Source of the DNA: Armatimonadota bacterium
GTDB taxonomy: Bacteria > Armatimonadota > Fimbriimonadia > Fimbriimonadales > Fimbriimonadaceae
Assembly: GCA_017303935.1 (NCBI GenBank)
Contig: JAFLBD010000002.1
Span: 786,784 to 850,783, forward strand
DNA: 64,000 nt
Reading direction: 5' to 3'
The position numbers and the translations under genes were made by a program. This document shows, one piece after another, positions 37,122 to 62,711 of the stretch (positions are counted from its first letter, which is position 1; the number at the start of each line of letters is the position of its first letter). Under the pieces are notes generated by a model that did not search any database, had not been told where the DNA came from, and saw only the letters and a list, made by a program, of their open reading frames with translations.

Positions 37122-37126
37122 GGTGG

Positions 37127-39074: not shown

Positions 39075-39076
39075 GT

Positions 39077-41771: not shown

Positions 41772-42260
41772 CTAAGCAAGTAACACAGGCGGGGCTCGCC
41801 CCAACCAGACGGAATGCGATCTTTGAGCAGGTGGCCCTGAGTCAGTTCCACGTATGCCGGGCTGGCGCAGTGAAGAAAGCTGAGGCGCGAGAGAAATCAG
41901 TTCTGGCGGCAGTAACGCCGCGAAGGGCAGGAAAGAAGATTGCGAGGATGTCGAAGCAATTGCAACTGGTGAACCGCGATTTTCCGACGGAGCCGAAATG
42001 CTGCAATCGCAGGAGCTTTTCTTTGCGGAGAACGACCCGTTTGCTGACGCCGTATGTGAGCCACACGGCTCCGGCCCAAGAGTTGCTTCGATATGACAGC
42101 TCTGGACGCTTGAATCAATAGGTGAGACCTGCGTTCGACAGCACGGCATGTCGCAATCTGAATGCTTCAGGAACATTCCAGCAAGCGCACTGGAGGGCAC
42201 TTGGGCCAGAGCCAGTACCAGAGCAACGACAATTTGAATCAGTGCTCCCTTGCTTCGCAT
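41772..42260 (-). CDS. small secreted Cys-rich protein, paralogue of 21646..22101
   Basis: Has HSDCDMPCC and a GRAPPVLLA tail. Start chosen at MRSKGALIQIV (ATG 42260). Confidence 0.45.
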   Translation of the reverse strand: MRSKGALIQIVVALVLALAQVPSSALAGMFLKHSDCDMPCCRTQVSPIDSSVQSCHIEATLGPEPCGSHTASANGSFSAKKSSCDCSISAPSENRGSPVAIASTSSQSSFLPFAALLPPELISLAPQLSSLRQPGIRGTDSGPPAQRSHSVWLGRAPPVLLA

Positions 42261-42355
42261 ACTCACCAGAACAGAATTTACCCGGAAAAAGTTCCCGCCA
42301 TCAAAATTGGAGCCGCGCACAGATTCCGATTCTGGCGTTCTGAGTCAGATGTATC

Positions 42356-42943
42356 CTAGTGCATTGAGTGATCTACCGCATTCGGTGTCTGCCCGTACTT
42401 GCTCTGAAGCCACGAGGTCAACGTTCTGATCTCGGCTTCTTGATCTCGGATTATGTTCGCGGCCAAGGTGCGAAGCTCGGGTCGCTCCGCAAACGTCGCC
42501 AGCTCTCGGGCCATGAGAACCGCATGCTCGTGGTGTCCAATCATGTCTGCGACGAAGCGTGCTTCAGCATCCTTCGGACTCAAGTTCTGTAGTGGTCGCA
42601 TCATCGCCTTGTATTTCCCATCGTCGCGGTATTCGGCTTCGTACCACTGAGCGTACCAAGTTTTCATCTCCGTAATCTCTGCTTCCTGTGCTCGAATGAT
42701 GTTTGATGCGAGTGTTCTGACATCAGGATCGACTACGACCGAAAGGAGCTCCTCGGAACTCGTGACAGCCTCTTGATGGTGTGGGATCATTCCGTGGATA
42801 AAGTCTCGCTCAGATGCAACAAACTCGGGTTTGGGATTAATCTGACCTTGAGAATCGTCTCGTATTGCCATAGTCCCTCGGTAAGCCAAGAAGACTGCAA
42901 CCAAGACAATGAACGCAAACAGCACCAGGTGACGTGGGTTCAT
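42356..42943 (-). CDS. DUF305 domain protein (second copy)
   Basis: 195 aa with an N-terminal TM/signal segment and MIPHHQEAV and MIGHHEHAV motifs. Confidence 0.7.
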   Translation of the reverse strand: MNPRHLVLFAFIVLVAVFLAYRGTMAIRDDSQGQINPKPEFVASERDFIHGMIPHHQEAVTSSEELLSVVVDPDVRTLASNIIRAQEAEITEMKTWYAQWYEAEYRDDGKYKAMMRPLQNLSPKDAEARFVADMIGHHEHAVLMARELATFAERPELRTLAANIIRDQEAEIRTLTSWLQSKYGQTPNAVDHSMH

Positions 42944-46159: not shown

Positions 46160-49100
46160 TATTCATCTCCATTTTGCCCATGGCGCGAAACCAACCCCAA
46201 GAACCGCTCAAAGAACGCAATGAGCTTCGCCAAAACCCGCTGCTTCTTCTGCCCGTGCCCACCGTCCGAGGAGAACCGGCTGGTCGGCGGCATGACCTTC
46301 GTGATAGCAGTTCCCGTGGAACGAATCACGCCGTCGCGGAAGGCTGATTCCACAAAAGCACGGGTTTCCTCGGGCTTTAAGCTCTCTTCTTCAATGATCT
46401 GACCAAGCTCCTCTTCGCGCTTTCGGTCAACAAATGCTCGCCACTCTGCATCGAGCTCACCTGATGCAGAGACCGAGTCTACGAAGTTCTCGATGAGGTC
46501 TTTCTTGTTCCTGAGGGTTGGCGAGGAATCGACTGCTCTCGTGATCTGGGCACGAATCTCCACATCATCGCCGTTGCCCTTCGCTTCGCGGAACTTCGCG
46601 ACAAGCATCAAAATGAAGTCAACGTTGATCTCGACCTGTTTGATCAGCTCGATCTCAAAGACGATGTCGTCGAGAATTTGCTCCTTGTCCGAGTCCTTGC
46701 CGGAGCGGAAGTCAGCGTAGATATCGAGGTAGATGCTTCGGTAGTCCTGACCTTCTCGGTCTGAGAGGACTGCGTTGCCTTCGAACTCGTCGAACGAAGT
46801 GAGAATGTTCTGGAGCCGGAGAATCGAGCCAAAGAGAGTTACGAACTCCTTTTGAGCCTGTTCACCCACAATCCGTTCATCGAGCGGGAATTTAGCGAGA
46901 AGCTCCTGCACTTTGGCTTCGTAGTCAGCAAAGTAGTCTCCATACGGCTTGAGAATGGCGATGCCCCGAGCTTCCTTGTTGCCAAAGAGCGAGAGCGCAT
47001 CGTTCGTCTCCGCCTCAAGGTCACGGAAGCTAATGATGTTCCCGTACGCTTTCACCGAATTGAGAATACGGTTCGTACGGGAGTAGGCCTGGAGCAGACC
47101 ATGGGCGCGAAGTTGCTTATCCACAAAGAGCGTGTTCAATGTGGTCGCATCGAAGCCGGTGAGGAACATGTTGACCACGATCACAAGGTCAATCTTTCGC
47201 TCCTTGAGATTTAGGGAAAGGTCTTTGTAGTAGTTCTGAAACTTGTCCGCTGATGTATCGAAGGACGTGCCGAACATCCCGTTGTAGTCTTTGATTGCCT
47301 CGTCAAGAAAGTCACGGGCCGCACCAGAGAGGTGGTTGGTCTCAAACTCCTCTTCCTCAAGTGCTCCGTCTTCAACGGCTTCATTCGCGGCGTACGAAAA
47401 GTTAATTCCTACCTTCAGCTGCTTATCAGGAACTAGCCCGGCTTGCTGACGTTTGAACTCTCCGTAGTAGGTCCGGGCTGCGTCGATTGATGCGGTGGCA
47501 AAGAGCGCGTTGAAGCCTCGCAAACGACGCTCTCCAAGGGAGTACGTGCTAGTTCGCTTCGTCTTCTGATCGAAGTGTTCCAGGATGTAGCTGGTCACCA
47601 AGCCGATTCGTTCTGAAGCAAGGAGTGCCCGTTCGGTGTCAATGGCTGAGACCTTCTTATCCAAAACGTCTCCCATCTTCACCGTGTTCACGTAGTCGAT
47701 CCGGAACGGAAGGACGTTCTTGTCAGTAATCGCATCGACGATGGTGTAGGTATGGAGCTTTTCCCCAAAAGCCTGTTCGGTCGTCTTGAGGTTCGGGTTT
47801 CCGCCACTCGACATGTTCTCGGTGAAGATCGGGGTTCCGGTGAAGCCAAAGAGGTTGTACCGCTTGAAGGCGCGGGTGATCGCCGTGTGCATATCACCGA
47901 ATTGAGAGCGGTGACACTCATCAAAGATCACCACGATGTGACCGCCAAAGACTTCATGTCCCTTATTGGCGTTAATGAAGTTGGCGAGCTTCTGGATCGT
48001 CGTGATGATGATCCGCGCATTCTTGTCCTCAAGCTGTCGCTTCAGAACTGCCGTGGAGGTGTTGGAGTTGGCTGCACCTTTTTCGAAGCGGTCGTACTCG
48101 CGCATCGTCTGGTAGTCGAGGTCTTTGCGGTCCACCACAAAGAGCACTTTGTCCACGCTCGGCATCTTGCTCGCAAGTTGAGCGGTCTTAAACGAAGTAA
48201 GCGTCTTGCCTGATCCAGTGGTGTGCCAAACGTAACCTCCTGCTCGCACCGAGCCTAGCCATTTCATGTTCGACGCCACCTCTATTCGCTGGAGGATTCG
48301 TTCGGTTGCGGCGATTTGGTACGGACGCATCACGAGGAGCATCCGATCTGCTGTGAGGACGCAGTATCGAGTGAGGATATTCAGCAGGGTGTGCTTCGCA
48401 AAAAACGTCTTGGCGAAAGCACTCAGTTCCTGAATCGGCTTGTTCTGCGAGTCGGCCCACCACGATGTGAACTCAAACGAGTTGGAGGTCTTCTTGATCT
48501 TCTTCGTTCCGGCAGCATCGGCAATGTGCTGGCGGCGGGTGGTGTTGCTGTAATACTTGGTCAGCGTTCCGTTGCTGATCACGAAAAGCTGGACGTACTC
48601 AAACAGGCCCGAACCAGCCCAGAAAGAGTCTCGCTGGTAGCGGTCGATCTGGTTGAAGGCTTCGCGGATGTCCACCCCGCGTCGCTTCAGTTCGATGTGA
48701 ACCATCGGCAAGCCATTGACCAAAACTGTCACGTCGAACCGAGTGGCGCGTGTCCCGGCGGTCTCATACTGGTTGATAACCTGCAACCGGTTGTTGTGGA
48801 TATTCTGTTTGTCGATCAGCTTGATGTTCTTGGTCGTGCCATCGTCGCGATGGAGAAGCTGAACCGAGTCCTCCTGGATGCGAATTGTCTTTTCAGCAAT
48901 GCCGTCGTTCTGCCCGGCGATGTTACTTTCAAAGAATCGCTTCCATTCGGCGAGGCTAAACTTCACATCATTCAGAGCCTCTAGCTGAGCCTGTAGGTTT
49001 GCGACGAGCTGCTCTTCTGAGGTGAACTTGAGGTAATCGTAGGCTTGCCCCTCTAAAATCCTGATGAGTTCCTTTTCCAGAGCGTCTTCACTCTGGTAGC

Positions 49101-49203
49101 TCGTCTCACGAACTTTCGATTCTGGGATGTACTGCGCAACGACCGTGCTCTCGTTGGAAACAGCAATCGGATCGTAGTTGTAAGGCGCTCGATCCTCGCT
49201 CAT
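46159..49203 (-). CDS. hsdR: type I restriction enzyme R subunit
   Basis: 1014 aa with an HSDR_N-like N-terminus (VLVNGLPMVHIELKRRG), TTGSGKT, FDECHRS and helicase C motifs. Confidence 0.9.
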   Translation of the reverse strand: MSEDRAPYNYDPIAVSNESTVVAQYIPESKVRETSYQSEDALEKELIRILEGQAYDYLKFTSEEQLVANLQAQLEALNDVKFSLAEWKRFFESNIAGQNDGIAEKTIRIQEDSVQLLHRDDGTTKNIKLIDKQNIHNNRLQVINQYETAGTRATRFDVTVLVNGLPMVHIELKRRGVDIREAFNQIDRYQRDSFWAGSGLFEYVQLFVISNGTLTKYYSNTTRRQHIADAAGTKKIKKTSNSFEFTSWWADSQNKPIQELSAFAKTFFAKHTLLNILTRYCVLTADRMLLVMRPYQIAATERILQRIEVASNMKWLGSVRAGGYVWHTTGSGKTLTSFKTAQLASKMPSVDKVLFVVDRKDLDYQTMREYDRFEKGAANSNTSTAVLKRQLEDKNARIIITTIQKLANFINANKGHEVFGGHIVVIFDECHRSQFGDMHTAITRAFKRYNLFGFTGTPIFTENMSSGGNPNLKTTEQAFGEKLHTYTIVDAITDKNVLPFRIDYVNTVKMGDVLDKKVSAIDTERALLASERIGLVTSYILEHFDQKTKRTSTYSLGERRLRGFNALFATASIDAARTYYGEFKRQQAGLVPDKQLKVGINFSYAANEAVEDGALEEEEFETNHLSGAARDFLDEAIKDYNGMFGTSFDTSADKFQNYYKDLSLNLKERKIDLVIVVNMFLTGFDATTLNTLFVDKQLRAHGLLQAYSRTNRILNSVKAYGNIISFRDLEAETNDALSLFGNKEARGIAILKPYGDYFADYEAKVQELLAKFPLDERIVGEQAQKEFVTLFGSILRLQNILTSFDEFEGNAVLSDREGQDYRSIYLDIYADFRSGKDSDKEQILDDIVFEIELIKQVEINVDFILMLVAKFREAKGNGDDVEIRAQITRAVDSSPTLRNKKDLIENFVDSVSASGELDAEWRAFVDRKREEELGQIIEEESLKPEETRAFVESAFRDGVIRSTGTAITKVMPPTSRFSSDGGHGQKKQRVLAKLIAFFERFLGLVSRHGQNGDE

Positions 49204-49710
49204 GCGGTCGCCTCCTGGAAAGTTAGGAGCTTGTCACGGTAATACTCGTACTGCTGGCGGCGGGCGTTGAGTTCGGCAGGAAGACCTGAGCTGAGATCGT
49301 TCACGAGGGCATCGAACTTATCTAGTAAATCAGCAATCCGCTTCTGCTCTTCAATCGGCGGGACGGGCACGAGTACTTCAGCCAAGTTGCCGACTGCCAA
49401 ACCAGGCTGAGCGCCAGATGATTTAAACTTGTTTAAGTTCATGGACGTAAGCATGTAGTACGCAAAATCGACATCCATGGCGTCAGAAGGCTCCGTAACT
49501 ACAGCATGTTCAGTCGCGTAAAACTCACCCGACGCTCTCTTTACATTTCCGCAGAGTGCGCCTTGCCGTCCGATCAGCAGGTACTTCCCGGTGTGACTTG
49601 CCGATCTTCCATAACCGCGTAGTCCATTCCCCCCATAGACTGGAAATCGCGATTCACTAGACTTCGCAGAAGCGATGGCTGTCGCGGAAAGATGTTGTCC
49701 AGCTTTCATG

Positions 49711-49727
<17 letters not shown>
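49200..49727 (-). CDS. hsdS: type I R-M specificity subunit, C-terminal half (TRD2 + distal conserved region)
   Basis: 175 aa ending VPVPPIEEQKRIADLLDKFDALV...RRQQYEYYRDKLLTF. It lies in the +1 frame relative to the upstream half. Confidence 0.8.
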
Positions 49728-50528
<801 letters not shown>

Positions 50529-50532
<4 letters not shown>

Positions 50533-51587
50533 TCCGAGTCCTCCATTTCACTTTTCTTACCAGCTTCCAGAAAGCGGTCAAAGTCACTCTGGAAAATCCG
50601 ATCCTGGACAATCCTGTACTTCTCGAACTCCGTTTCCGCGTGGAGCTTGGCTTGCTCGTGGCTAATCCGCCCTGGCCCGGTGAGTACCTCGCGCTCGTTG
50701 AATTCCAGGAACCCATCGAGCCGCTTGGCCCAATCCTCCATCGACATGGGAATCTTTCGCTTAGCTTGGTCCTCGGCGTAGTCGAGGTACATGGAGACGA
50801 TCCGCTCCATGTGTTCCATCTCCTCATCGTTTAGGTAGTTCTTGGCAATCGAGACGTCAGACTTGACGATTTTTCCCACGGGAGCGGACTCCCACGTCGT
50901 GAGACCCATGTGCTCTTTCTCGGCGTCTGCCCGTTCGATGATGAGTTCGGCGGCAGTGTGGCGGTGAACTGCCCAGTGCATCTTGTTTTGCACCAGAGCG
51001 AAAAAGAGTTTGGTTGTTTGGGCCGCCTGGTCGTAGTCAAAGGCAGAAGCGTAGAGGTCGGTGACTTTTTGGTAGAACTTCCGCTCCGACAGACGGATTT
51101 CTCGGATAAGCTGGAGTTGTCGGTCGAAGTATTCGTCCGTGAACATGTGCCCCTTCTTGAGGCGATCCACGTCCATGACCCATCCCTGGATGGTGTAGAG
51201 CTTCACAATCTGACCAGCCCACTTTCGGAACTGCACCGCGCGTTCGTTCTCGATCTTGAACCCGACTGCGATGATCGCTTGCAGACTGTAGAGCTTGGTG
51301 TTGTAGGCCTTGCCGTCGGCGGCAGTTATCAAATGCTGTTTGATAACTGAAGATTCTTCGAGCTCGTGATCAGCGATAATCCGAAGCAAGTGGTGGTTTA
51401 CGGTTTGCACCGTGACGCCGTAGAGGGTCGCCATCATCTTTTGAGTCAACCAGAGGTTCTCTTCTAGATAGAGCAGCTCGGTAGATTCAGATTCGCCGCC
51501 AACCGATGCGATGAATGTCAGGTATTCCGCCGCCGAAGCGCGCATTTTATCCATGTCCTGCTTCGGCTTTTCGGGCTTGTCGCTCAT
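50529..51587 (-). CDS. RhuM-family (Fic/DOC-related) protein embedded in the R-M operon
   Basis: 352 aa with LWLTQKMMATLYGVTVQTVNHHL and a conserved C-terminal helical region. ATGA overlaps at both ends. Confidence 0.7.
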
Positions 51588-53155
51588 GCTGGACTCCCTT
51601 CGAGGTCGGCTACGATGGCGTCAATTTGGGTGCGTAGCTCAGATTGGCGAGCCACGATACCTGCGATTCTCGCGTTGAGGGCCGTGATGTCGATGGCTTC
51701 GCTCGTATCTTCCTTCTCCACGTAGCTGGAGACCGAAATGTTGTAGTTGTTCTCCTCGATGTCTGCCGCTGTGACCAACCTCGTGAAGTGCTCCTCAGTC
51801 TGACGGGCGTTGAACGCATCGAGAATTCTCTGCTGATGCTCAGGAAGGAGCCTGTTCTTGTTTCCCACACGCTGAAAGAGTGCGGAGGCGTCGATGAAGA
51901 GAATTGCGTTATCCTTCTTCGACTTTTTGAGGACGATGACGCACGTGGCAATTGGTGTCCCGAAGAACAGGTCGGGCGGAAGCTGAATGACAGTGTCGAT
52001 GTAGTTGTTGTCGATCAGGTACTTGCGAATCTTCTGCTCGGCCCCGCTCCGATACAGGACACCGGGGAACTCAACGATTGCGGCGGTCCCGTTGACGGCA
52101 AGCCAATGGAGCATGTGCATTGTGAACGCAAGGTCGGCGGCTTTCTTTGGAGCGAGCACACCGGCTGGTGCGAACCGTGGATCGTTGATCAGGAGCGGAT
52201 TAGCGTCTCCGTCCCATTTGATTGAGTAGGGTGGGTTGGAAACAATCGCTTCAAACGGTTCATCATCCCAGTGGAGCGGATCAGTCAGGGTGTCGCCGTG
52301 TGCGATGTGGAACTTCTCGTAGTTCACGTCATGCAGGAACATGTTGATCCGAGCCAGGTTGTACGTCGTCAGGTTGATTTCCTGCCCATAGAAGCCTTGG
52401 CGAACGTTTTCCTTGCCGAGCACTTTGGCGAACTGGAGCAAAAGTGACCCGGAACCTACAGCGGGGTCATACACCTTATTGACCTGAGTCTTGCCAGCCA
52501 CGGCGATCTTCGCCAAAACCTCGGAGACTTCCTGCGGGGTGAAGAATTCACCTCCCGACTTTCCGGCTTGAGAGGCGTACATGGTCATCAAGAATTCGTA
52601 CGCATCACCGAAGAGGTCAATCGAGTTGTCTTCGTAGTTGCCGAGCGGTAGGTCTCCGATGGCATCTAAGAGTTTTACGAGCTTCTCGTTGCGCTTTGCC
52701 ACCGTTGGCCCGAGCTTTGCACTGTTTATATCAAGGTCATCGAACAGACCCTTCAGGTCATCTTCGCTCTCCGTCCCTACAGCCGAGCCTTCGATGTTGT
52801 TGAAGACTCTTTCAAGGGTCTCATTGAGGTTTTCGTCACTCTTGGCTCGTTTGCGGACGTTTACGAATAGCTCAGACGGCAGAATGTAGAACCCTTTCTC
52901 AGCAACCGTTTCGGTGCGCCCAAGCTCCGCATCCTTGTCGGACAGTTCGGCGTAGTTGAAATCTACTTCGCCAGCCTCCTTTTCGAGCTTATTGATGTAA
53001 GAAGACAGGTTCTCGGAGATGAACCGATAAAAAAGCATCCCGAGTACGTAAGACTTGAAATCCCAACCATCCACCGAGCCACGAAGATCATTGGCGATTC
53101 GCCAGATGGTCTTGTGAATCTCCGCCCTCTGAGTCTCGCTTGTGGTTGGCGGCAT
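51584..53155 (-). CDS. hsdM: type I R-M N6-adenine DNA methyltransferase
   Basis: 523 aa with an HsdM N-terminal domain, VYDPAVGSGSLL (motif I) and IVSNPPYS (motif IV). Confidence 0.9.
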   Translation of the reverse strand: MPPTTSETQRAEIHKTIWRIANDLRGSVDGWDFKSYVLGMLFYRFISENLSSYINKLEKEAGEVDFNYAELSDKDAELGRTETVAEKGFYILPSELFVNVRKRAKSDENLNETLERVFNNIEGSAVGTESEDDLKGLFDDLDINSAKLGPTVAKRNEKLVKLLDAIGDLPLGNYEDNSIDLFGDAYEFLMTMYASQAGKSGGEFFTPQEVSEVLAKIAVAGKTQVNKVYDPAVGSGSLLLQFAKVLGKENVRQGFYGQEINLTTYNLARINMFLHDVNYEKFHIAHGDTLTDPLHWDDEPFEAIVSNPPYSIKWDGDANPLLINDPRFAPAGVLAPKKAADLAFTMHMLHWLAVNGTAAIVEFPGVLYRSGAEQKIRKYLIDNNYIDTVIQLPPDLFFGTPIATCVIVLKKSKKDNAILFIDASALFQRVGNKNRLLPEHQQRILDAFNARQTEEHFTRLVTAADIEENNYNISVSSYVEKEDTSEAIDITALNARIAGIVARQSELRTQIDAIVADLEGSPA

Positions 53156-53345
53156 CAGACCCTAGCCGCTCCTGGAGGAGAGCCGTTTAGCCGGTGACTG
53201 CCTTCAAATGAAATCATAATTCTAGCTTCATTTTGACCCATTTGCCGGGTGCTCACATGGTAGCGAGATGCAAATGGGTTAGAAAGGCCTTCGCACGTTT
53301 GAAGTTACTTTTGGTTTGAGCTGAGAATGAACCAAGAATGGGCGC

Positions 53346-53525
53346 ATGCCCCGTTGCTACCTGTGCTCCAAACTGATCCCGGTCGAGGAACGTCCATTGC
53401 GGCGGCGGGTTCGTGTTGGCGAGATCGAGAAGAAGAAGTACGGCGCGGAGCGAGCCAGGTTCGTGCAGAGCCAGTACGGGATGAGGGTCGTCTGCAAGTC
53501 GTGTGCGGCGTTCCAAGATCGCTAG
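53346..53525 (+). CDS. 59-aa basic zinc-ribbon protein (two CxxC pairs)
   Basis: Below the track cut-off. My translation is MPRCYLCSKLIPVEERPLRRRVRVGEIEKKKYGAERARFVQSQYGMRVVCKSCAAFQDR. A hairpin terminator follows it. Confidence 0.45.
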   Translation: MPRCYLCSKLIPVEERPLRRRVRVGEIEKKKYGAERARFVQSQYGMRVVCKSCAAFQDR

Positions 53526-53618
53526 GCGCGGCAGAGGGAGCTTCATGAGCTTCACATGTTTCTGACGGCGGTCGTGGTGATCGGATTGGTCTCTCTGACT
53601 CTGTGGATACGCTGAAAA

Positions 53619-53644
53619 GACCCCGCTGGTGGTGCGGGGTTTTG
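53619..53644 (+). terminator. intrinsic terminator-like hairpin (possibly bidirectional)
   Basis: ACCCCGC-TGGTGGT-GCGGGGT followed by TTT and preceded by AAAAG. Confidence 0.6.
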
Positions 53645-53648
53645 GTGG

Positions 53649-55064
53649 GTGTCAGTTGGAGTCGTACTTGACTCCTCGGATATAGTCGGCGGCCTTTTGT
53701 GCCTGGGCGGCGGCAATCACGACGGCCTTGGGACCAACTACGCATACTGGCGACTCCTGGAGTTTCTCCTCTTCGGTACATGGGTCGATGAAATCACCGG
53801 CAAACTGGTGCTGAGCGCCAAGCAAGCCGCATATCTCACCGGAAACGAACGCAAGTGGCTCAGCCACCGTTTCGCTTTGCAACCTCTGCTCGACGACTTC
53901 TCCCGAGAAGTCTTTCCCTTGGACACGGAGGGAATTGTCTTTAACCATTACTTCTTAGCTAACCGGGCTGGCCAGGTTGTAACCGACATTCCAGATTGGT
54001 TGTTGAGCGCGGCCAGCGCCGAACGACGGAGCACAGGTGGAAAGCGCGTCGAGTTCTCGACGGGTAGGGACTGGACGCCGAGAGAGTCTGCAAAAGTGTT
54101 GAAGTCGTTGAGAGAAGAAGCGACTATTGCGGCCGTCACGGCCGGTTGTGCCGAGACCCAGCGCCTCCTTTCCTACTTGAACAGCCTCGCTCCGAACACC
54201 TTTGTGAAGATTCGAAAACGCGTTCCCCAAGCACATGTGGTAGCCGATGCGGTCGAAGCAGACGTCGAGCGGCAACATAACCTCCTTCAGGCCATCGAGC
54301 AAATGTGTCAACCCTTCTACAAGCCGGTTGAGAACTCGCCCCGTGCGTACACGCTCAACGAATCGTTCCCACGCCTAAAGCGGGAAGTTCGATGTGTCCT
54401 CACAGAGGGCTGGTTGAAGGCCGACTTAGCTTCTGCACAGCTTGCCATTGCAGCGCACATCTGGAAAGTACCCGTCGTCGTGGAATTCCTGGCGTCAGAG
54501 CAATCCATCTGGTTGGAACTACAGGCTTGGATGAAGACGACAGGTGACCCCGAATCGAAATCTAACCTGAAGGAAATGATGTATAGCCTGCTGTTCGGGA
54601 TGTCGCGTAAGAACCTGAGCGCGAAAGCGAGAGGCATGTTTCCAGGGTACAAGCACCCTTGGCTACGCCTGAGGCGACATAATATTGTCGCAGCGATGTT
54701 GAAAGCGCGAGAGGACCAGTTTGAAGTGTTGCGGCGCACCGGCAAGACTGAGGATGCCTTTGGACGCACGCTGATTCTTCAGCCAAAGGGTCGGTCACAC
54801 GGTAGCCACCAGCCAGATACTGCAAACCGTATCCTGGCCCAAGTTGCACAAAGTTGGGAACTCCGATTGATGTTGCCAATCCTAGACTTGGCCGAGGCTC
54901 ATCGAGGTACGAACGGATTCACAGTCACCATGTGGCTTCACGATGGCGTATGTATCAACGTTCACGATGCTAGGCGCATCGAAGGTTGGAAGGAGAGAAT
55001 ATCCTCGGCAGTTGCAAAGCAAGCTGGTGAACTCGGAATTCCGACCAGATTAGTCTGGGAGTAG
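53649..55064 (+). CDS. stand-alone family A DNA polymerase-like domain protein (no exonuclease domains)
   Basis: 471 aa from GTG 53649 (start uncertain). Motif A-like ADLASAQLAIAAH (D259). Motif B-like LKEMMYSLLFGMS (K308). RILAQVAQS. Motif C-like WLHDG (D432). Confidence 0.65.
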   Translation: MSVGVVLDSSDIVGGLLCLGGGNHDGLGTNYAYWRLLEFLLFGTWVDEITGKLVLSAKQAAYLTGNERKWLSHRFALQPLLDDFSREVFPLDTEGIVFNHYFLANRAGQVVTDIPDWLLSAASAERRSTGGKRVEFSTGRDWTPRESAKVLKSLREEATIAAVTAGCAETQRLLSYLNSLAPNTFVKIRKRVPQAHVVADAVEADVERQHNLLQAIEQMCQPFYKPVENSPRAYTLNESFPRLKREVRCVLTEGWLKADLASAQLAIAAHIWKVPVVVEFLASEQSIWLELQAWMKTTGDPESKSNLKEMMYSLLFGMSRKNLSAKARGMFPGYKHPWLRLRRHNIVAAMLKAREDQFEVLRRTGKTEDAFGRTLILQPKGRSHGSHQPDTANRILAQVAQSWELRLMLPILDLAEAHRGTNGFTVTMWLHDGVCINVHDARRIEGWKERISSAVAKQAGELGIPTRLVWE

Positions 55065-55467
55065 TTTCCTTATGAGATGCAATGCTGGTTCTGGTTCTAC
55101 TTGAATCAGCATTGCTAATCTCTGATTTCCATTTGTTAGATTCAGTGATTTCATTTATCCATTCCCTCTGTTTGCTATGCTTCCAACCATTCTCTTTCCT
55201 TAATCTTCTAGCAGTTCCTTCAGATTCTCCAATAGCCCGTGACGGGCTTGCCCCTACCTACTTCTCTGGTTTCTTCCTCTTAACTCTCCTAATTGGGATT
55301 ACCCATAACTATTCATCCCTAAGCGCCGCACTTTGAACCTGAGAGCCTGCAGAAATTTCGCACCAGCGCACTAAGGCAGGTCGACCACAAACGCGGTTTT
55401 GCGAGCCAAATGCTTTGCATGAAGTGCTTCATCAACAACACACCTCGGTCCATAATCACTCAAGGCC

Positions 55468-58400
55468 ATGGAGTCCATCATCACCATCCCGGAAGTAGGT
55501 CAGCTCGTCGAGGTGCGTCGGCGACAGTTCGTGGTGACCAGGGCTCGTCCATCCGGCCTGGACGGAGTAGAAGCGCAAACTGTGCTTGAACTCGCCTCTG
55601 TAGAGGACGATTCCTCTGGAGAGCAACTCACCGTAGTCTGGGAATCTGAAATCGGGGCCAGACTCGGCGAAGCCGCATCAATTCCAGAACCCACTCGATT
55701 CGACGACCCGGCCCAAATCGACGCATTCCTGTCCGCAGTCCGCTGGGGCGCCATCAGTTCTGCGGATACTCGCACCCTCCTGGCCCCTTTCCGCAGCGGA
55801 ATCGAAATCCACGACTACCAGCTTGAGCCGCTTGTCCGCGCGCTCCAAATGCCGCGCGTTAATCTGCTCATCGCAGATGGCGTTGGTATCGGTAAGACGG
55901 TGGAAGCCGGACTCGTCGCGCAAGAACTCATTCTCCGCAATCGCGCCCATAACGTCCTCGTGGTTTGCCCGGCCACACTGCAAATTCAGTGGCGCGACGA
56001 AATGCGGGACAAGTTCGGTCTTGAGTTCCGCATCGTGGACAGCGATACGCTCAAGCAACTTCGGCGAGAGCGCGGCATCCATGTCAACCCCTGGAAACAC
56101 TTCCCACGGCTCATCACCAGCATCGACTTCCTCAAGCGTGAGCGTTCGATGCAGCTGTTCCGCGAGCTACTCCCACCAGATGGTCGACCAACCTACCCTC
56201 GGACCTTCGACTTGATGATTCTTGATGAAGCCCACGGCTCCGCGCCATCCGGTTCAGGAAAGTATGCGACCGATTCTCAACGAACGTTGGCCATCCGAGA
56301 ATTAGCCCCTCACTTCGAGCACAAGATGTTTCTCTCGGCCACCCCGCACAACGGATACTCCGAATCCTTCACCGCGCTCCTTGAACTCCTGGACCCCCAA
56401 CGTTACGTTCGTTATCGAGGCTCAAATGATGCAGACAAGGTCGCCCAATACATGGAGCGCATCAAGGACCAGTTGCAATCGGTCACGATGGTGCGTAGGC
56501 TCAAGGACGACATCCCGCCGCATGGCGATGGCACACCACGCTTCCCCGCGCGAAAACTTGAGCGGCTAGAGGTCGACTATATGGAAGCGGAGCGGAATGC
56601 CCATGAGCTCCTGGAGAATTTCTTCAAATCGAGAGCAGAAACTCAAGGCAACCACTCCGGTCGCTATGCGACCGAGTTCATGCATAAGCTGCTCAAGAAG
56701 CGGCTGTTCTCGAGTCCCCTGGCATTCCACGAGACGCTGTCCAAGCACGCCAACACGCTACGACATGGCCGCGGAGAGCAGGCAAAGAAGGTTGACCCCG
56801 ACCTCCTCAAAAAGCGCATCGCTGCCCTGGAAGAATCCACGTCGAACGAGCAAGAACGGGAGGAGCGAGAAGACGACGCGGTCGTGGAAACCACGCGTGC
56901 AGCGGCCCCGCTGACACCCGAGCAAGATAGTCTGCTCAACGAGCTACTTCGCTGGTCAGAGCAAGCTTCTCGGAGCGCCGATGCGAAGACCCGCGTCCTC
57001 TTGTATTGGCTCAAGAAGACCCTGAAGCCCAACGACCAGTGGAACGACGAGCGGGTCATTCTCTTCACCGAGTATCGCGACACCCAGAACTGGCTGTTTC
57101 AGTTGCTGAATCAAGATGGCCTGGGTGATGTCGGTCGACTTGAGACCATGTACGGAGGCATGGATGACGACAAGCGCGAGGCGCTCAAAGCCGCCTTCCA
57201 AGCCAACCCCGCGCAATCACCCCTACGCATTCTCCTCGCCACCGACACGGCTAGCGAAGGCATCAACCTTCAGAACCACTGTAACAAGCTCGTCCACATC
57301 GAAATCCCCTGGAATCCGAACCGGATGGAGCAGCGCAACGGGCGCATCGACCGCCACGGCCAGAAGCGACCTTGCGAGGTGTACCACTTCGTTGGCCGAG
57401 GATTTGAAAGAGGCGGACTTGAAGCAGACCTCTACTTCCTATTCCGAGCTTGCCAGAAGGTCAACCAAATCCGAGAAGACCTCGGCAAGGTCGGTCCCGT
57501 CATCGAGCAGCAAGTCGAGGAAGCCATGCTTGGCAAACGAACCGAGCTTCAGACGACTCAGGCCGAGGCCGCATCGACTCCCATTCGCAAGTTGCTCACC
57601 GCAGAGCGCAAGATGCGAGAGCAAATCGAGTTGCTTCGCAACCGACTGGAGGAGACCAAGCGAGACCTTGGCATCTCGCCCGAGGCCATCCAAGCCGTAG
57701 TCGAAGTCGCGCTCGCACTTGAAGACCGTCCCGGACTAGAGCCGGTGCAAGTCATCGGAATCCCGAAGGCGTTCAAGATGCCTGCGCTCACCGGACCCTG
57801 GGAAGCCGCCCGAGCAGGCAACCCCCATCCGTACACCCAAGAGCCGCGGCCCATCGTTTTCGACCACGCCTACGTGGAAGGCCGTGATGATGTCGAACTC
57901 ATCCACCTCAACCACCGCCTCGTTCAAATGTCGCTCCGACTCTTGCGTGCGGAAGTCTGGAGCAGCGGCAACCGTCGAAAGCTATCTCGAGTTTCCGTCA
58001 AAGTCGTCTCCGACACGTACCTAAGCACACCTGCTTTGATTGCCTTCGGTCGACTCGTCGTTCTAGGTGCGACCCACCAGCGACTCCACGAGGAAGTCAT
58101 CACCGCAGGTGGCATTCTCAGGCCGGGTGGGATTGCCCGCATGAAGGTCGAGGACGTCCAACTTGCCCTTGAGCATGCTGAGAATGGGCTTGTAAACAAA
58201 ACCTATCTTGAGCAAATCCAGACAGACTGGCCAAGCCTCGGCCCCGCGCTTCAGAACGCCCTCGACATCCGCATGCGCGAAGTCACCCGCAACCTCGAAG
58301 GCCGCTTCCTAGAAAAGGCCGACCGAGAAAAGAAGGACGTCGAGAAGATTCTCCGCGAACTCGATGCCACCATCCGCGCCGAACTCAAAGAGCCAGACAA

Positions 58401-58608
58401 CCAGCTGACGTTCGAATTCAACGAACTTGAGCGCGACCAATACCGCCGAAACGTCGATGCCATCCGGCTCCGTCTTGAGGAAATCCCGGCTGAAATCGAG
58501 GAGGAGAAACGACTGGTCGACCGCCGCTACGAAAGCCCGACGCCACGCCTTTTCCCGGTCTGCGTCCTGCTCGTCGTGCCCGACACCATGGTAGAGGGAG
58601 CGAGATGA
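55468..58608 (+). CDS. SNF2-family helicase/translocase (DrmD-like)
   Basis: 1046 aa with HDYQLEP, ADGVGIGKT, ILDEAHG, LSATPHNG, TDTASEGINLQ and QRNGRIDRHGQ. Confidence 0.85.
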   Translation: MESIITIPEVGQLVEVRRRQFVVTRARPSGLDGVEAQTVLELASVEDDSSGEQLTVVWESEIGARLGEAASIPEPTRFDDPAQIDAFLSAVRWGAISSADTRTLLAPFRSGIEIHDYQLEPLVRALQMPRVNLLIADGVGIGKTVEAGLVAQELILRNRAHNVLVVCPATLQIQWRDEMRDKFGLEFRIVDSDTLKQLRRERGIHVNPWKHFPRLITSIDFLKRERSMQLFRELLPPDGRPTYPRTFDLMILDEAHGSAPSGSGKYATDSQRTLAIRELAPHFEHKMFLSATPHNGYSESFTALLELLDPQRYVRYRGSNDADKVAQYMERIKDQLQSVTMVRRLKDDIPPHGDGTPRFPARKLERLEVDYMEAERNAHELLENFFKSRAETQGNHSGRYATEFMHKLLKKRLFSSPLAFHETLSKHANTLRHGRGEQAKKVDPDLLKKRIAALEESTSNEQEREEREDDAVVETTRAAAPLTPEQDSLLNELLRWSEQASRSADAKTRVLLYWLKKTLKPNDQWNDERVILFTEYRDTQNWLFQLLNQDGLGDVGRLETMYGGMDDDKREALKAAFQANPAQSPLRILLATDTASEGINLQNHCNKLVHIEIPWNPNRMEQRNGRIDRHGQKRPCEVYHFVGRGFERGGLEADLYFLFRACQKVNQIREDLGKVGPVIEQQVEEAMLGKRTELQTTQAEAASTPIRKLLTAERKMREQIELLRNRLEETKRDLGISPEAIQAVVEVALALEDRPGLEPVQVIGIPKAFKMPALTGPWEAARAGNPHPYTQEPRPIVFDHAYVEGRDDVELIHLNHRLVQMSLRLLRAEVWSSGNRRKLSRVSVKVVSDTYLSTPALIAFGRLVVLGATHQRLHEEVITAGGILRPGGIARMKVEDVQLALEHAENGLVNKTYLEQIQTDWPSLGPALQNALDIRMREVTRNLEGRFLEKADREKKDVEKILRELDATIRAELKEPDNQLTFEFNELERDQYRRNVDAIRLRLEEIPAEIEEEKRLVDRRYESPTPRLFPVCVLLVVPDTMVEGAR

Positions 58609-61600
58609 GAAGGCCGCCGAAACTTGAGTGGATGGGGTTGATGGATGTCGTCGGCCCCTTCGTCACCCCTGCCATTGTCGCCGAGGCATTCCCCAGCGGC
58701 CTCGAAGGTCACGACTCCGGTTTGCTCAAGGGACTCCGTAGCGCCTACAAAACCTGGGAAGACTCCGACGACCCCGTCTGGCATAGAGAGTGGGTCAATG
58801 TGGTCCTCAGCAACGTCCTGGGCTACCAAGAAAAGCACATTCTCCAGGACCAGGCCATCCCCGAGTCCATCAACTACGTCGACCGGACCCATCACACCAC
58901 CATCCGGCCAACCTTCATCATCCATCAACCCGAATTCCCCGACCGGGGCCGCATTCTCGTCATGCGACTGCCCAAAGGTGAGTCGACCTCCAAGCCCAAA
59001 GCGGAAGCCAAGTGGCAAGCCTCGCCCATCAGCCAGATGCAGATGCTGCTCCAGGCGAACAACGAGAAAGTCGGCTTGGTCACCAACGGCGAAGAATGGG
59101 TTCTGGTCAACAACTGCGGAACCGGTGCCGTGGGCTTCGCCACCTGGTACGCCTATCTCTGGCTTGAGGAGCACGACACGCTCCGCAGTTTCCGGTCGCT
59201 CTTGTCCATCCGACGTGTCTTCGGCGGCGAGCCCGGAAGTCGACTAGTCGACCTTCTCGCGAAGGGTGCCGAAGACCAACAGGATGTCACCGACCGCCTG
59301 GGCTATCAAGTCCGCCGAGCGGTCGAAGAACTGGTCGGCGCCTTCGAGCGGCTCGACCGCGACTCCAACCGAGAACTCCTCAAGGGCGTTGGAGAAACCG
59401 AGGTCTACGAAGGCGTGCTCACCGTGATGATGCGTCTGGTGTTCCTCTTCTGCGCCGAGGAACGCGGGCTGCTCCATCTAGGCGAAGACCTATACGACCG
59501 GTTCTATGCCGTCTCCACGCTCCGCGAGCAGTTGCATGATGACGCAAGCAAGCTCACCGAGGAAGTCCTCGACCGTCGCTCATCGGCCTGGTGTCGGTTG
59601 CTGGCGACCTTCCGCATGGTCTACCAAGGAGTCGCTCACGAAGACCTGCGCATCCCTGCCTACGGCGGAACGCTCTTCGACCCCGACCGATTCCCGTGGC
59701 TCGAAGGCCGGCATGCCGATGGAACCAACGAGCCGCCTCACGTCAGCGACCGCATCGTGTTGCACCTGCTCGACTCGCTCCAGGTGCTGCGCCAGGGCCA
59801 GGAAGCCCGCAAGCTATCGTTCCATGCCCTCGATGTCGAGCAAATCGGCCACGTTTACGAAGGCCTGCTCGACCACACAGCGAAGCGAGCGCTCAAGCCC
59901 GTGCTTGGTCTGGTCGGCAAGGAAGGCGACGAACCCGAAGTCGACTTGGAGACGCTGGAAGCCAAGGTCGCTGAAGGTCGCGACAAGTTCATCGTGTATC
60001 TGAAGGACCAAACCGGCAAGACCGAGCGTGCCCTGGGCAACTTGCTAGACCAAGTAACCGATGCCGAGAACCTCCGTAAGTTGCGGGTGGTCTGCGGCGA
60101 CGACCACGACCTCTTCGAGCGGGTCAAACCGTTCGCCAACCTGATTCGCGAAGACAGCTTTGGCAACGTCCAGGTCTATCCCGAGGGCGCGCTTTACGCA
60201 ACCGTGGGGAGCGACCGGCGCAGCACCGGCACCCACTACACGCCGCGCATGCTCACCGAGGAAGTCGTCAAGTACGCTCTGGAGCCGCTGGTCTATGTCG
60301 GCCCCGCCGAGGGGTTGCCCGAGGAGGAGTGGACGCTCAAAGATGCCAAGGCTATCGTCGACCTCAAGGTCTGCGACATGGCGATGGGTTCGGGTGCATT
60401 CCTCGTGGCGGCCTGCCGATTCCTTTCCATCAAGTTGGTGGAGGCGTGGGCGGTTGCCGAAGAGAAAGCCGCCCGCCGACTGGGCTTCTCGGCCGAAGGT
60501 CACTTCTTCACCCATCGCATTGAGGGCGACCACCACGCCAAAACGCCTGGCACGACCGTCGCAACACCGTTTGGCGATATCGCCGTTGCCGACCCGAGCC
60601 AGGAGTTGATTCCAAACGATGCCGAGGAGCGGTTGGCGATGGCGAGGCGCATCGTCGCTGACCGATGCCTCTATGGCGTCGACCGGAACGCGATGGCGGT
60701 GGAGATGGCGAAGTTGTCGCTCTGGCTTACCACCCTGCGCAAAGACCGGCCGTTCACCTTCCTCGACCATGCCCTGCGCCATGGCGACTCCCTGCTCGGC
60801 GTCACCGAGCGGCAGTTGGAGTTCTTCAATGTGAACCTAGAAGAGGATAAGCAGTCACAAGCCCTCTTCTTAAGGTGGGTGCCGGAGTACGTCGAGAAGG
60901 TGCGCAACCTACGCCAACAGATTGCCCGCATCCCCAGTCACGACCCCGAGGCGATTCGGCGTAAGCAGAGGTTGTTCGACCAGGTGCGAGAATTGGAGAA
61001 GCCGCTCAAGTTTGCCGCCGACGCTCTATTGGCGTGCGAGCTTTCGGAAGGCAATGCTCAGAACACATTGGTAGGACGGACAAAGGTGCAGATGACCTTG
61101 ACCGAGGTTCCCGCAGGAGACCGCGTCAAGACGGTCTATCCAGAACTATCTGGACGACCGACTCTTCACTGGGAACTTGAGTTCCCGGATGTGTTTGACC
61201 AGGGCGGATTTGATGCAGTCGTTGGCAACCCGCCTTATCAAGGTGGCAGGCAAACCGCTACACATCAAGGACCAGACTATCACGCTCTGATTTGTCTTAT
61301 CAACCTAGTGCCCGGAACGGTCGACCTAGTTTGTCACTTCTTCAAAAGGGCGTTCCTGCTCATCGGCAACGGAGGTGCTGTTGCAGTTGTTTCGACAAAT
61401 TCTGTTAAGGAGACTTCGAATCGGGAGGCTTCGCTAGATTTCGTCCTTAGTTCCGGGGGGGCAATTTACCGTGCCACATCCGAGGCTCACTGGGGCGGAG
61501 CGGCGGCGGTGACGACTCTAAATGTCTGGATTTACAAGGGGCCCTGGGATGGTAACTACTTCATCGACGGAGCAAAGGTCGAGACAATCCATAGTTCGCT

Positions 61601-62711
61601 CGATGCTGATGTTGACTTGGCTCAGATTGAAAAACTGAAGCACTCTTTCCGCTACTCAGAAGGAACCAAACTGTATGGAGACGCCTTCATAATTAGCAAA
61701 GCCCAGCTAGGTACCATTCTGCGTGACAATCCAGGGCTCGGCGATTACCTACGTGTCTATGTTAACGGAGATGTTTTGAATGACACTCCCGACTGCGTGG
61801 GAACGGATGTCGTTGTGGACTTCGGTGAACTAGACGTCCAAGAGATTTCTGGTTGTGAAAGTATCATCAGAACTCTTTCATCGCAAGTAGCATACGAGCG
61901 CAGAAATCAGACTCGACAAATCCACGAGCATCGCCCTTGGCTTCATTGGGATAAGCGCACAAGATTCTTTGAAGAGGCAAGGAGCCGAGAACGCATTCTT
62001 GCCTGCGCAATCGTTTCGAGGCGACTGATGTTTGACTATGTCGACCCTCAAAAACTGTTCGCCCACGGTATCAAGTTGTTCTTGGATGATACTGGCTACC
62101 TGCTTGCGGTGTTGCAATCGAGTATTCACACTGCGTGGTCTCGGGTGGTCGCTTCGCGCATGAGACAAGAGACGCGATACTCGACCACCGACTGCTTTGA
62201 TACTTTTCCATTTCCGCCATTTTCCCGCGAGTTAGCCGAAGCTGGCAATCAGCTTGATGAGGCAAGGAGAGCTAGTCGTGAGAATCGGCAAATCGGACTT
62301 AACGGGCTATACGCGCTCGTCGATGATATCAACTGCCAAGAGGAGGACATCGTGGCAGTTCGACACGCAATTGTTTCGGTTGACGTGGCAGTTGCGTCGA
62401 GTCTTAGCTGGGACCCGACTTTCCTTGAGCATGGCTTCCACCCTTGGCATCCTGGAACGAGATTCACCATCTCGCCCCAGGCCCGCAAAGAAGTCCTCCG
62501 CCGCCTGCTGAAGCTGAACCACGAGCGCTACACCGAAGAAGTCGCCGCCGGCCTTCATGACAAGAAGGCTAAGAAATCCTCCGCCACCCCCGGCTCAACC
62601 CCCAAACGCGGCCGCAAACCTAAATCCTCGCAGCCGGATGCTACCGACCTCACCTCCCCCCGCCGCAACCTCTTCGACACCCAACTCACGTTCGGTGAGG
62701 TCGACAACTAG
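58605..62711 (+). CDS. large N6-adenine DNA methyltransferase (Eco57I/type IIG-like) with an HSDR_N-like N-terminal domain and a long C-terminal region
   Basis: 1368 aa with VCDMAMGSGAFLV (motif I) and VVGNPPYQGG (motif IV). The N-terminus has GLVTNGEEWVLV. ATGA overlap with the SNF2 stop. Confidence 0.85.
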   Translation: MRRPPKLEWMGLMDVVGPFVTPAIVAEAFPSGLEGHDSGLLKGLRSAYKTWEDSDDPVWHREWVNVVLSNVLGYQEKHILQDQAIPESINYVDRTHHTTIRPTFIIHQPEFPDRGRILVMRLPKGESTSKPKAEAKWQASPISQMQMLLQANNEKVGLVTNGEEWVLVNNCGTGAVGFATWYAYLWLEEHDTLRSFRSLLSIRRVFGGEPGSRLVDLLAKGAEDQQDVTDRLGYQVRRAVEELVGAFERLDRDSNRELLKGVGETEVYEGVLTVMMRLVFLFCAEERGLLHLGEDLYDRFYAVSTLREQLHDDASKLTEEVLDRRSSAWCRLLATFRMVYQGVAHEDLRIPAYGGTLFDPDRFPWLEGRHADGTNEPPHVSDRIVLHLLDSLQVLRQGQEARKLSFHALDVEQIGHVYEGLLDHTAKRALKPVLGLVGKEGDEPEVDLETLEAKVAEGRDKFIVYLKDQTGKTERALGNLLDQVTDAENLRKLRVVCGDDHDLFERVKPFANLIREDSFGNVQVYPEGALYATVGSDRRSTGTHYTPRMLTEEVVKYALEPLVYVGPAEGLPEEEWTLKDAKAIVDLKVCDMAMGSGAFLVAACRFLSIKLVEAWAVAEEKAARRLGFSAEGHFFTHRIEGDHHAKTPGTTVATPFGDIAVADPSQELIPNDAEERLAMARRIVADRCLYGVDRNAMAVEMAKLSLWLTTLRKDRPFTFLDHALRHGDSLLGVTERQLEFFNVNLEEDKQSQALFLRWVPEYVEKVRNLRQQIARIPSHDPEAIRRKQRLFDQVRELEKPLKFAADALLACELSEGNAQNTLVGRTKVQMTLTEVPAGDRVKTVYPELSGRPTLHWELEFPDVFDQGGFDAVVGNPPYQGGRQTATHQGPDYHALICLINLVPGTVDLVCHFFKRAFLLIGNGGAVAVVSTNSVKETSNREASLDFVLSSGGAIYRATSEAHWGGAAAVTTLNVWIYKGPWDGNYFIDGAKVETIHSSLDADVDLAQIEKLKHSFRYSEGTKLYGDAFIISKAQLGTILRDNPGLGDYLRVYVNGDVLNDTPDCVGTDVVVDFGELDVQEISGCESIIRTLSSQVAYERRNQTRQIHEHRPWLHWDKRTRFFEEARSRERILACAIVSRRLMFDYVDPQKLFAHGIKLFLDDTGYLLAVLQSSIHTAWSRVVASRMRQETRYSTTDCFDTFPFPPFSRELAEAGNQLDEARRASRENRQIGLNGLYALVDDINCQEEDIVAVRHAIVSVDVAVASSLSWDPTFLEHGFHPWHPGTRFTISPQARKEVLRRLLKLNHERYTEEVAAGLHDKKAKKSSATPGSTPKRGRKPKSSQPDATDLTSPRRNLFDTQLTFGEVDN

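Follow-up and report, generated by a model that had tools for sequence, protein, structure and literature searches.

A 5′-truncated gene for an unannotated minimal family-A DNA polymerase-like protein, related to genes of integrative mobile elements, in an Armatimonadota genome

The subject of this report is an open reading frame (ORF) for a family-A DNA polymerase (PolA)-like protein, found in a stretch of 64,000 nucleotides of an Armatimonadota bacterium (contig JAFLBD010000002.1, positions 786,784 to 850,783), hereafter called the window. The ORF comprises 471 codons from a GTG start and lies at 53649..55064 on the + strand; it is taken from the ORF list and is backed by a profile match and a fold match. 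A preliminary description, made from the letters alone, had placed the gene between a type I restriction-modification (R-M) operon and an SNF2/methyltransferase pair, a location that Pfam and PADLOC annotation confirmed. Codons 26-471 (53724..55064, +) are homologous to a protein family and encode a helical N-terminal region, a thumb, a palm and fingers. Motif A covers D259-I267 (DLASAQLAI; 54423..54449, +) and includes the catalytic aspartate as well as Q264, which stands at the site of the Pol I steric-gate glutamate. Motif B, or O-helix, is K304-G317 (KSNLKEMMYSLLFG; 54558..54599, +), followed by Q401-E404 (QSWE; 54849..54860, +), where E404 is an invariant specific to this family, and by motif C at H431-D432-G433 (54939..54947, +), with the second catalytic aspartate and a glycine in place of the second carboxylate. 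The preliminary description was right on the motifs, but it had counted codons 1-25 (53649-53723) as part of the gene, and these fall outside the family.

All the motifs it had listed are at the residues given, namely D259 in ADLASAQLAIAAH, K304, K308, Y312 and F316-G317 in KSNLKEMMYSLLFGMS, G372-R373, Q401 in AQVAQS and H431-D432-G433, and the spacing is as claimed, with 49 residues from motif A to motif B and 124 from B to C. Q264, a near-invariant glutamine at the steric-gate position, was absent from that list. The glycine at the second motif C carboxylate had been read correctly and is kept in 151 of 153 relatives, and the reported absence of exonuclease domains was reproduced in Pfam and NCBIfam scans and in an AlphaFold2 model. 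The single-sequence scan with Pfam gave a weak DNA_pol_A match (E 1.1e-3, 18.4 bits vs a cut-off of 34.3) at residues 252-327, and single-sequence searches of NCBIfam, PHROGs, PADLOC and the PDB sequences (phmmer) yielded no match for the polymerase ORF; hence, the relationship to PolA becomes visible by profiles and fold comparison only. A word-indexed protein search with the ORF retrieved 26 homologous clusters, none of them annotated. A profile of 16 homologous sequences matches Taq Pol I (E 1.3e-6, 30.7 bits) over profile positions 222-461, from before motif A to the C-terminus.

The AlphaFold2 model, computed from the homologue alignment, reached a mean pLDDT of 84.7 and a pTM of 0.81, and its N-terminal ~90 residues are helical. 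The Foldseek comparison with Pol I structures that the preliminary description had suggested returned family-A polymerases: 163 PDB matches at E<=0.001 were obtained, and the 50 matches listed are family-A polymerases without exception, Taq, Klenow, Bst, Aquifex, apicoplast and mycobacterial Pol1 among them. The figures (E 3.7e-8, probability 1.0, 370-390 aligned columns) imply that the match takes in the thumb besides the palm and fingers. Among the 50 matches listed from BFVD most are nameless; the named ones, with a fusion protein and an uncharacterised protein as the two exceptions, are family-A polymerases or exonuclease/polymerases, and no match of the 50 comes closer than the cellular enzymes do. 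Profile and fold comparison bear out the stand-alone PolA-type gene and confirm that the ORF encodes a minimal family-A polymerase domain whose resemblance to Pol I is not by chance.

The family is large. An exhaustive search with a hidden Markov model (HMM) through 1.84 billion representative proteins, clustered at 50% identity, found 1550 representatives with the threshold set at E<=1e-3, of which 1015 remained at E<=1e-30, and nearly all of the 150 members listed have 450-530 amino acids and are matched end to end by the profile. There is no entry for them in Pfam, NCBIfam, PHROGs or PADLOC, and they are annotated as hypothetical protein throughout. Conservation was counted in an alignment of 153 diverse relatives, ~30% identical to the window protein. 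R232, D259, W288, K304, K308 and Y312 are invariant (D259, K304, K308 and Y312 in 153/153), and at least 95% conservation was observed for R248 (150/153), Q264 (146/153), G317 (152/153), R354, Q401 and E404 (151/153 each), D432 and G433 (151/153), position 316 being F or Y across the relatives. In the alignments to Taq and Klenow, R248 corresponds to E. coli Pol I R668, which contacts the primer/template, and D259 to the motif A catalytic aspartate D705; K304, K308, Y312, F/Y316 and G317 correspond to R754, K758, F762, Y766 and G767 of the O-helix, Q401 to the minor-groove contact Q849, and H431 and D432 to H881 and D882 of motif C. The two aspartates D259 and D432 align with Taq D610 and D785. 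Two departures from ordinary PolAs are fixed in the family, glutamine for the steric-gate E710 and glycine for the motif C E883. Conservation of the active site argues that the members of the family would be active nucleotidyl transferases.

The copy in the window differs from its relatives at the 5′ end. Homologues are typically 467 amino acids long and start with MYLPHK..EFR.....LPGLG, and the window protein has instead an unrelated leader of 25 residues. Among the related loci, designated by L numbers and searched for in part with a 13-sequence subset profile, the closest is L001, and its 88% nucleotide identity to the window sets in abruptly at window position 53724, equivalent to position 10064 of L001 and 63 nt inside the gene, to continue through the polymerase gene and the downstream spacer into the SNF2 gene, drmD. 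The native first 21 codons (MYLPHK...FR...LP) are gone, and with them residues F12, R13 and P21, conserved in 117-136 of the 153 relatives. Breakpoint alignment shows a non-homologous extension in their place (53649..53723, +), the opposite strand of which contains, at 53652-53723, the last 24 codons of another gene (ending in AAAQAQKAADYIRGVKYDSN, with its stop at 53652-53654). Directly upstream of the GTG, a G+C-rich hairpin read from the sequence (ACCCCGC-TGGTGGT-GCGGGGT; 53617..53645, assigned to neither strand) is positioned as a terminator for the gene remnant read on the - strand; its T-runs are weak on either strand, and it stayed under the T-run threshold of the terminator scan. The replaced start, the end of a gene on the opposite strand and the hairpin together indicate a recombination junction joining two truncated genes, and the 53649-53723 segment is, by alignment, a rearrangement scar. 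The backbone genes found alongside the polymerase gene in its relatives are all absent from the 64-kb window.

The GTG at 53649 is in frame and has GGTGG just upstream, with no ATG, and a scan specific for sigma-70, which may not suit this organism, detected no promoter-like site in 53100-55600. The remaining 446 codons contain neither stops nor frameshifts, and the ratio of nonsynonymous to synonymous substitution (dN/dS) against L001 is 0.12, in the same range as that of two intact relatives compared (0.16). Two readings fit these observations: a recent rearrangement, or an ORF whose GTG still serves as its start, in which case the truncated copy would be expressed.

Downstream, the polymerase gene and drmD are set apart by a noncoding, pyrimidine-rich spacer of ~400 nt (55065..55467, +). 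One hairpin, of 13 bp, comes just after the stop codon, and another, GCCCG-TGA-CGGGC, lies in mid-spacer; with its equivalents in L001 (11405-11810) and L005 (11405-11811) the spacer is conserved at about the level of the coding flanks in the three loci. No gene is called at this place in the relatives. An 84-codon ORF at 55082-55336 was considered as a small partner and rejected, its frame being broken by single-base indels in L001 and L005. No credible Rfam match for a structured RNA was found around the polymerase gene.

The SNF2 gene (55468..58608, +) encodes a DrmD-type helicase of 1046 amino acids (PADLOC DrmD, 1311.7 bits; Pfam SNF2-rel_dom and Helicase_C), and the gene after it (58605..62711, +) a type IIG-like N6-adenine methyltransferase of DrmMI type with 1368 amino acids (PADLOC DrmMI, 1417.4 bits; Pfam Eco57I, MmeI_Mtase and MmeI_TRD). 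Both PADLOC models are matched end to end, and the pair is, by these matches, a DrmD/DrmMI of the DISARM class 1 / ARMADA type with an ArmA-like DrmD. The SNF2 protein is recognized by the models PDLC02572/PDLC02621, with 1146.9 bits under a DrmA label vs 1311.7 under the DrmD label, scores so nearly equal that the DrmA-labelled model appears to describe a DrmD-type protein. Neither DrmA, DrmB (DUF1998) nor DrmC (PLD) was found in the 1.3 kb between 62711 and the window end at 64000, where one unannotated ORF of 229 amino acids is located on the - strand. In L005 the DrmD/DrmMI genes (11812-19301) are followed by HNH and HATPase_c proteins, with no adjoining DrmA/B/C. The pair may be an incomplete DISARM or a two-gene system of an SNF2 protein and a type IIG-like methylase, related to ARMADA ArmA/ArmB.

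The organization of the relatives was compared in a close clade formed by L001, L004, L005, L014 and L015 (54-93% identity) together with L006 (42%). An integrase gene comes first; small genes follow on one strand, among them those for DUF2958, a DUF932-like protein of 377 amino acids and a protein of ~175 amino acids; the divergent strand carries genes for a ~265-aa protein, a C5-cytosine methylase and a small helix-turn-helix (HTH) protein, then the PolA-like gene and, after it, cargo. Searches of the PDB sequences with the 265-aa and the DUF932-like 377-aa backbone proteins gave no match. In L005 the element starts beside a tRNA-Leu gene. DrmD/DrmMI directly follows the polymerase gene in the window, L001 and L005, a lineage with at least 75% identity. 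At 42-64% identity other cargo takes the DrmD/DrmMI position: L015 has hsdR, HamA with a helicase (Hachiman-like) and proteins of SIR2 and TIR type, L006 has small HTH genes ahead of DrmC/DrmB/DrmA-like genes with a KAP NTPase, and L004 and L014 have a helicase encoded on the opposite strand. The confinement of the DrmD/DrmMI adjacency to one lineage indicates that it was inherited and not independently selected. On this comparison the polymerase gene is the last gene of the backbone, at the edge of an exchangeable cargo slot, in the intact relatives, and the DrmD and DrmMI genes are cargo, not conserved partners of the polymerase.

Outside the close clade, the surroundings again belong to a mobile element, but to another kind in each case. 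The L012 element spans 6.0 kb and is bounded by direct repeats of 64 nt (6058-6121 and 12062-12125; 95% identity); besides the polymerase gene it contains only genes for an integrase and a MerR-like protein and two small ORFs. Three tandem copies of a 21-nt repeat just inside its right end and one just inside its left end are probable arm sites of the integrase, and a further pair of direct repeats, of 32 nt, is located at 11665-11735, downstream of the polymerase gene. A large serine recombinase is encoded two genes downstream in five loci (L011, L022, L024, L036 and L066), resolvase or serine recombinases are nearby in L007, L008 and L009, L013 has a transposase gene next to MmeI-like and GmrSD-like genes, and a D5-like primase-helicase lies near the polymerase gene in L040. 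The contig L072 carries phage Mu Gp36 and terminase genes. As a separate observation, a TREX/DnaQ-like 3′-5′ exonuclease gene lies immediately downstream on the convergent strand in L050, L060, L061 and L069, matched by Pfam RNase_T in two loci and by the PHROG "DNA polymerase exonuclease subunit" in three; these contigs come from one study, may be closely related and form a single small clade.

In ~60 loci, a census of the ORFs at most two genes away from the polymerase gene, 150 in all, gave Phage_integrase (5), Recombinase (5), DNA_methylase (4), Resolvase (3), ResIII (3), SNF2 (3) and Endonuclease VII (3) as the commonest Pfam families, recombinases leading among the annotated ones. In the PADLOC scan of the same neighbours, the 25 commonest families, with at most 4 members each, all correspond to four C5-methylases. 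BLAST clustering of the five nearest neighbours per side and phmmer comparison of the small flanking ORFs revealed no partner gene across clades, with partners at clade level only. By its integrases, large serine recombinases, resolvases, backbone of DUF932, DUF2958 and C5-methylase genes and att-like repeats, the conserved setting of the polymerase gene is a mobile element.

In the window, the place of this backbone is occupied by the type I R-M block (46159..53155, -). It consists of hsdR (46159-49203, -), an hsdS present as two overlapping ORFs of 175 and 273 amino acids with one Methylase_S domain each (49200-49727 and 49711-50532, -), a RhuM-family gene between hsdS and hsdM (50529-51587, -) and hsdM (51584-53155, -). 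An 891-aa superfamily 1 helicase (Viral_helicase1 / AAA_30 / UvrD_C_2; 43484-46159) is encoded on the same strand directly downstream of hsdR, stop and start abutting at 46159, possibly as an accessory to that block. Between hsdM and the junction, a 59-codon ORF (53346-53525, +) with two CxxC pairs (MPRCYLCSK...VVCKSCAAFQDR) would encode a zinc-ribbon-like protein. Further away, a copper/metal-handling cluster (36714-42943, -) contains two DUF305 genes and genes for a YHS/TRASH protein, a cupredoxin, DUF2231 and an ABM monooxygenase, and the window is in this respect a composite island with metal-resistance and defence cargo.

Polymerases of comparable architecture have been described as TV-Pols (Iyer, Abhiman and Aravind 2008, PMC2579912). 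They have 400-600 amino acids, consist of the PolA catalytic core only and are never linked to nucleases; the core is composed of a thumb, a hairpin bearing an arginine, a palm with two aspartates and fingers, and a subset has an all-helical N-terminal domain. Their genes have those of a resolvase, lambda-type integrase or transposase as neighbours, in hot spots where R-M operons also occur, and some are linked to D5-like helicases; the role predicted for the proteins was to prime and copy the element that carries them (PMC2579912). The present family resembles them in its nuclease-free core, its size of 450-530 amino acids, its helical N-terminal region, the proximity of integrase, resolvase and transposase genes amid R-M genes and the D5-like helicase link (seen once, in L040). 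Of the sequence marks described for TV-Pols, an arginine of the kind that they conserve absolutely in the hairpin before the palm is present (R232, invariant; R248, 150/153), and the first fingers helix has KxxxK (K304, K308) instead of RxxxK. The family differs also in its distribution, since Armatimonadota, Cyanobacteria, Patescibacteria and Deinococcota are not in the published list. The phage Ma-LMM01 was named as carrying a TV-Pol element (PMC2579912). A scan of its first 50 kb with the family HMM gave no significant match. A candidate TV-Pol is its ORF30 (L074 22746-24266), which encodes a hypothetical protein of 506 amino acids next to an IS605-type transposase and was singled out by visual inspection of motifs and surroundings. 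The motifs of ORF30 (YDVVKCHATIA, VKTAVLAVINGA, LLQRIE and QHDG) come in the same order as in the window family, and the idiosyncratic QHDG and Q..E motifs are shared. In a collection of 5.8 billion proteins ORF30 has six homologous clusters, and their profile found no PDB match. On these grounds the window family likely belongs to the TV-Pols.

The CcPol of SCCmec is counted among the TV-Pols (PMC2579912) and was shown experimentally to act as a primase in complex with MP, a small OB-fold protein that it needs for priming (PMC10061031). Pairs of a PolA with a protein that binds single-stranded DNA (SSB) are found on islands of Bacillota with large serine recombinases and conflict-related cargo (PMC7581432, PMC10061031). 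CcPol and the present family have in common a truncated family-A polymerase in an integrative element with recombinases and conflict-related cargo, with the aspartates and the O-helix kept. However, this family has no conserved OB-fold partner or helicase next to the gene, CcPol keeps the steric-gate glutamate (DFKSFEPS) and HDA where the window family has Q and HDG, and CcPol retains three exonuclease helices, whereas the N-terminal region of the window family appears to be a different helical domain. For comparison, CcPol-type and Klenow sequences were rebuilt from the supplementary alignment of PMC10061031. The hhalign probability was 96% over ~194 columns for the CcPol-type group vs 87% for the Pol I-type group, which suggests a slight preference in sequence for the CcPol type.

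Compared with canonical Pol I (Klenow/Klentaq), the fold, the equivalent residues and the A-B-C spacing are the same, but both exonuclease domains (5′-3′ and 3′-5′) are missing, identity is ~15%, the score is under the Pfam gathering score, and E710, E883 and N845 are replaced by Gln, Gly and Ala, respectively. The family is not among the clusters named in the part of the PolA survey PMC10201439 that names 11 of its 19 clusters, nor among the PolA1, PolA2, PolA3 and PolA1-like groups in the available sections of PMC12926913, and the sub-threshold DNA_pol_A score may explain its absence from these portions of the surveys. In organization the closest analogy is with the pipolins, integrative elements of piPolB with a conserved backbone and an exchangeable defence module (PMC11551731): both have a backbone of polymerase and recombinase and exchangeable defence cargo. 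The piPolB enzyme, unlike the one described here, belongs to family B and is primer-independent, and the likeness is one of analogy, not homology.

The explanation that we favour, and hold to be probable while well short of certain, is that the polymerase is the DNA polymerase of the element itself, possibly a primase, and that the window holds a 5′-truncated copy left by backbone replacement, with DrmD/DrmMI kept. The intact elements encode a minimal, nuclease-free family-A polymerase at the border of backbone and cargo, and the enzyme would extend primers, and possibly prime de novo, on the excised, transferred or newly acquired element. In the window, recombination has swapped the backbone and the first 21 codons for a gene remnant, the hairpin and the type I R-M block, to leave the 3′ 446 codons fused to a foreign leader of 25 codons and followed by the DrmD/DrmMI cargo. 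The fold, the conservation of the active site, the association with mobile elements, the changing cargo and the truncation are shown by the comparisons; polymerase activity and a role in replication or priming are suggested by the resemblance to the TV-Pols, for which such a role was predicted, and to the SCCmec CcPol-MP primase.

Several results weigh against this explanation. The 153-sequence family HMM scores weakly on a TV-Pol, with 23.5 bits for S. aureus CcPol vs 14.6 for Klenow, and the CcPol score is no better than the 30.7 bits of Taq with the 16-sequence profile. The hhalign comparison of the family with the six-homologue profile of ORF30 was likewise weak (42% probability, E 2.6e-4), the invariants being in register. 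No conserved helicase, SSB-like or primase partner was found adjacent to the gene in the neighbour comparison, although OB folds could escape a sequence search. The preliminary description had considered that homologues might reside almost exclusively in prophage or plasmid replication modules; mobile-element genes do surround them, but they are nearly absent from phages and plasmids and do not lie within recognisable replication modules, and membership in such modules was rejected as stated. The family matched 0/50,697 phage records, 1/72,556 plasmids in full length and one IMG/VR contig (L072), the plasmid match being a "hypothetical protein" gene of a Deinococcus megaplasmid near IS630-type transposase genes. 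This near-absence indicates that the gene is not a classical replicon gene. Moreover, the window, L013 and L015 are in defence-rich surroundings, the dN/dS of 0.12 gives no sign of decay in the truncated copy, and the invariant Gln and Gly may make the chemistry or the substrate (e.g. ribonucleoside triphosphates or RNA templates) depart from ordinary DNA synthesis.

The polymerase could instead be accessory cargo with an effector function of its own, in defence or anti-defence, a possibility that we regard as improbable and yet the foremost competitor for its function. It would act as a single-gene system that makes DNA or copies RNA on infection, in the manner of the Abi/DRT reverse transcriptases, or, jointly with the neighbouring orphan C5-methylase, with which it forms an operon-like block in the close clade, it would shield the element from restriction on entry. 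That block is restricted to the close clade, however, and although the gene borders defence cargo in the window, L001, L005, L006 and L015 and accompanies MmeI-like/GmrSD-like genes in L013, the commonest PADLOC families among the 150 neighbours reduce to the four C5-methylases. The lack of a conserved partner is what a single-gene system would have, the gene travels among elements with unrelated recombinases, and its invariant residues Q264 and G433 are unusual for an active site; against this, the 6-kb L012 element holds nothing besides the polymerase gene but two small ORFs, an integrase gene and a MerR-like one, and PolA-based defence is absent from PADLOC and from the literature found, in line with the preliminary description, which knew of no such system. 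In a narrower form, to which we give a rather smaller chance, the polymerase would be a conflict module at the entrance of the defence slot and not a replication enzyme, its Gln and Gly fitting RNA-templated, ribonucleotide or untemplated synthesis. The idea that the polymerase and its neighbours form a defence system, put forward in the preliminary description and developed here as a DISARM-like system with the polymerase as third component beside DrmD and DrmMI, is largely refuted by the gene comparisons and is the least credible of the proposals. The order PolA-like, DrmD, DrmMI is shared by the window, L001-L003 and L005, and the pair, with no DrmA/B/C by DrmMI in L005 or in the 1.3 kb left of the window, might need a partner; but the window, L001 and L005 are a single lineage (at least 75% protein identity; 88% nucleotide identity for L001) in which the order is inherited, the polymerase gene and drmD lie 400 nt of noncoding, hairpin-containing DNA apart, and the window copy has no native start. 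The co-occurrence of the SNF2 and methyltransferase genes with the polymerase, which had been proposed as a check, did not extend to the family: SNF2 accounts for 3/150 neighbours, there is different cargo at 42-64% identity, and the described DISARM and ARMADA systems have no polymerase (PMC13463889).

A role in error-prone repair or translesion synthesis, as cargo comparable to the umuDC/rumAB of plasmids and integrative and conjugative elements or to the exonuclease-dead APEX/PolA2, seems to us distinctly unlikely. The protein has no proofreading domain, its active site is conserved and its gene resides on mobile elements, and in the available sections of PMC12926913 exonuclease-less PolAs such as APEX are proposed to participate in mutagenic repair. 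However, there are no RecA, LexA or ImuA-type genes among the neighbours scanned, and a gene that dominates a minimal 6-kb element suits a function for the element over a benefit for the host. Compatible with the favoured explanation, and about evenly balanced in our estimate, is the proposal that the copy in the window is a dead, unexpressed pseudogene, a remnant of the rearrangement. The native start, 21 codons, the promoter region and the whole backbone are lost, and a hairpin directly upstream, with neither a promoter-like site nor an ATG, points in the same direction; on the other side stand 446 intact codons with the dN/dS given above, the in-frame GTG with GGTGG upstream, and a sigma-70 scan that may not suit the organism.

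The protein is best placed with the minimal family-A polymerases known from mobile elements, among which it is new and unannotated and may represent a separate branch, and not regarded as a new defence system, and the claim of a DISARM-linked polymerase defence system is removed as unsupported. The minimal family-A polymerases of this group, whose active site is strictly conserved, make up more than 1000 uncharacterised clusters, CcPol-MP being the only enzyme of this general kind that has been studied biochemically. The changes from Glu to Gln at the steric gate and from Glu to Gly in motif C make the family attractive for work on substrate specificity. Moreover, the polymerase gene could serve as a landmark for defence-carrying elements in poorly studied phyla, as piPolB does for pipolins.

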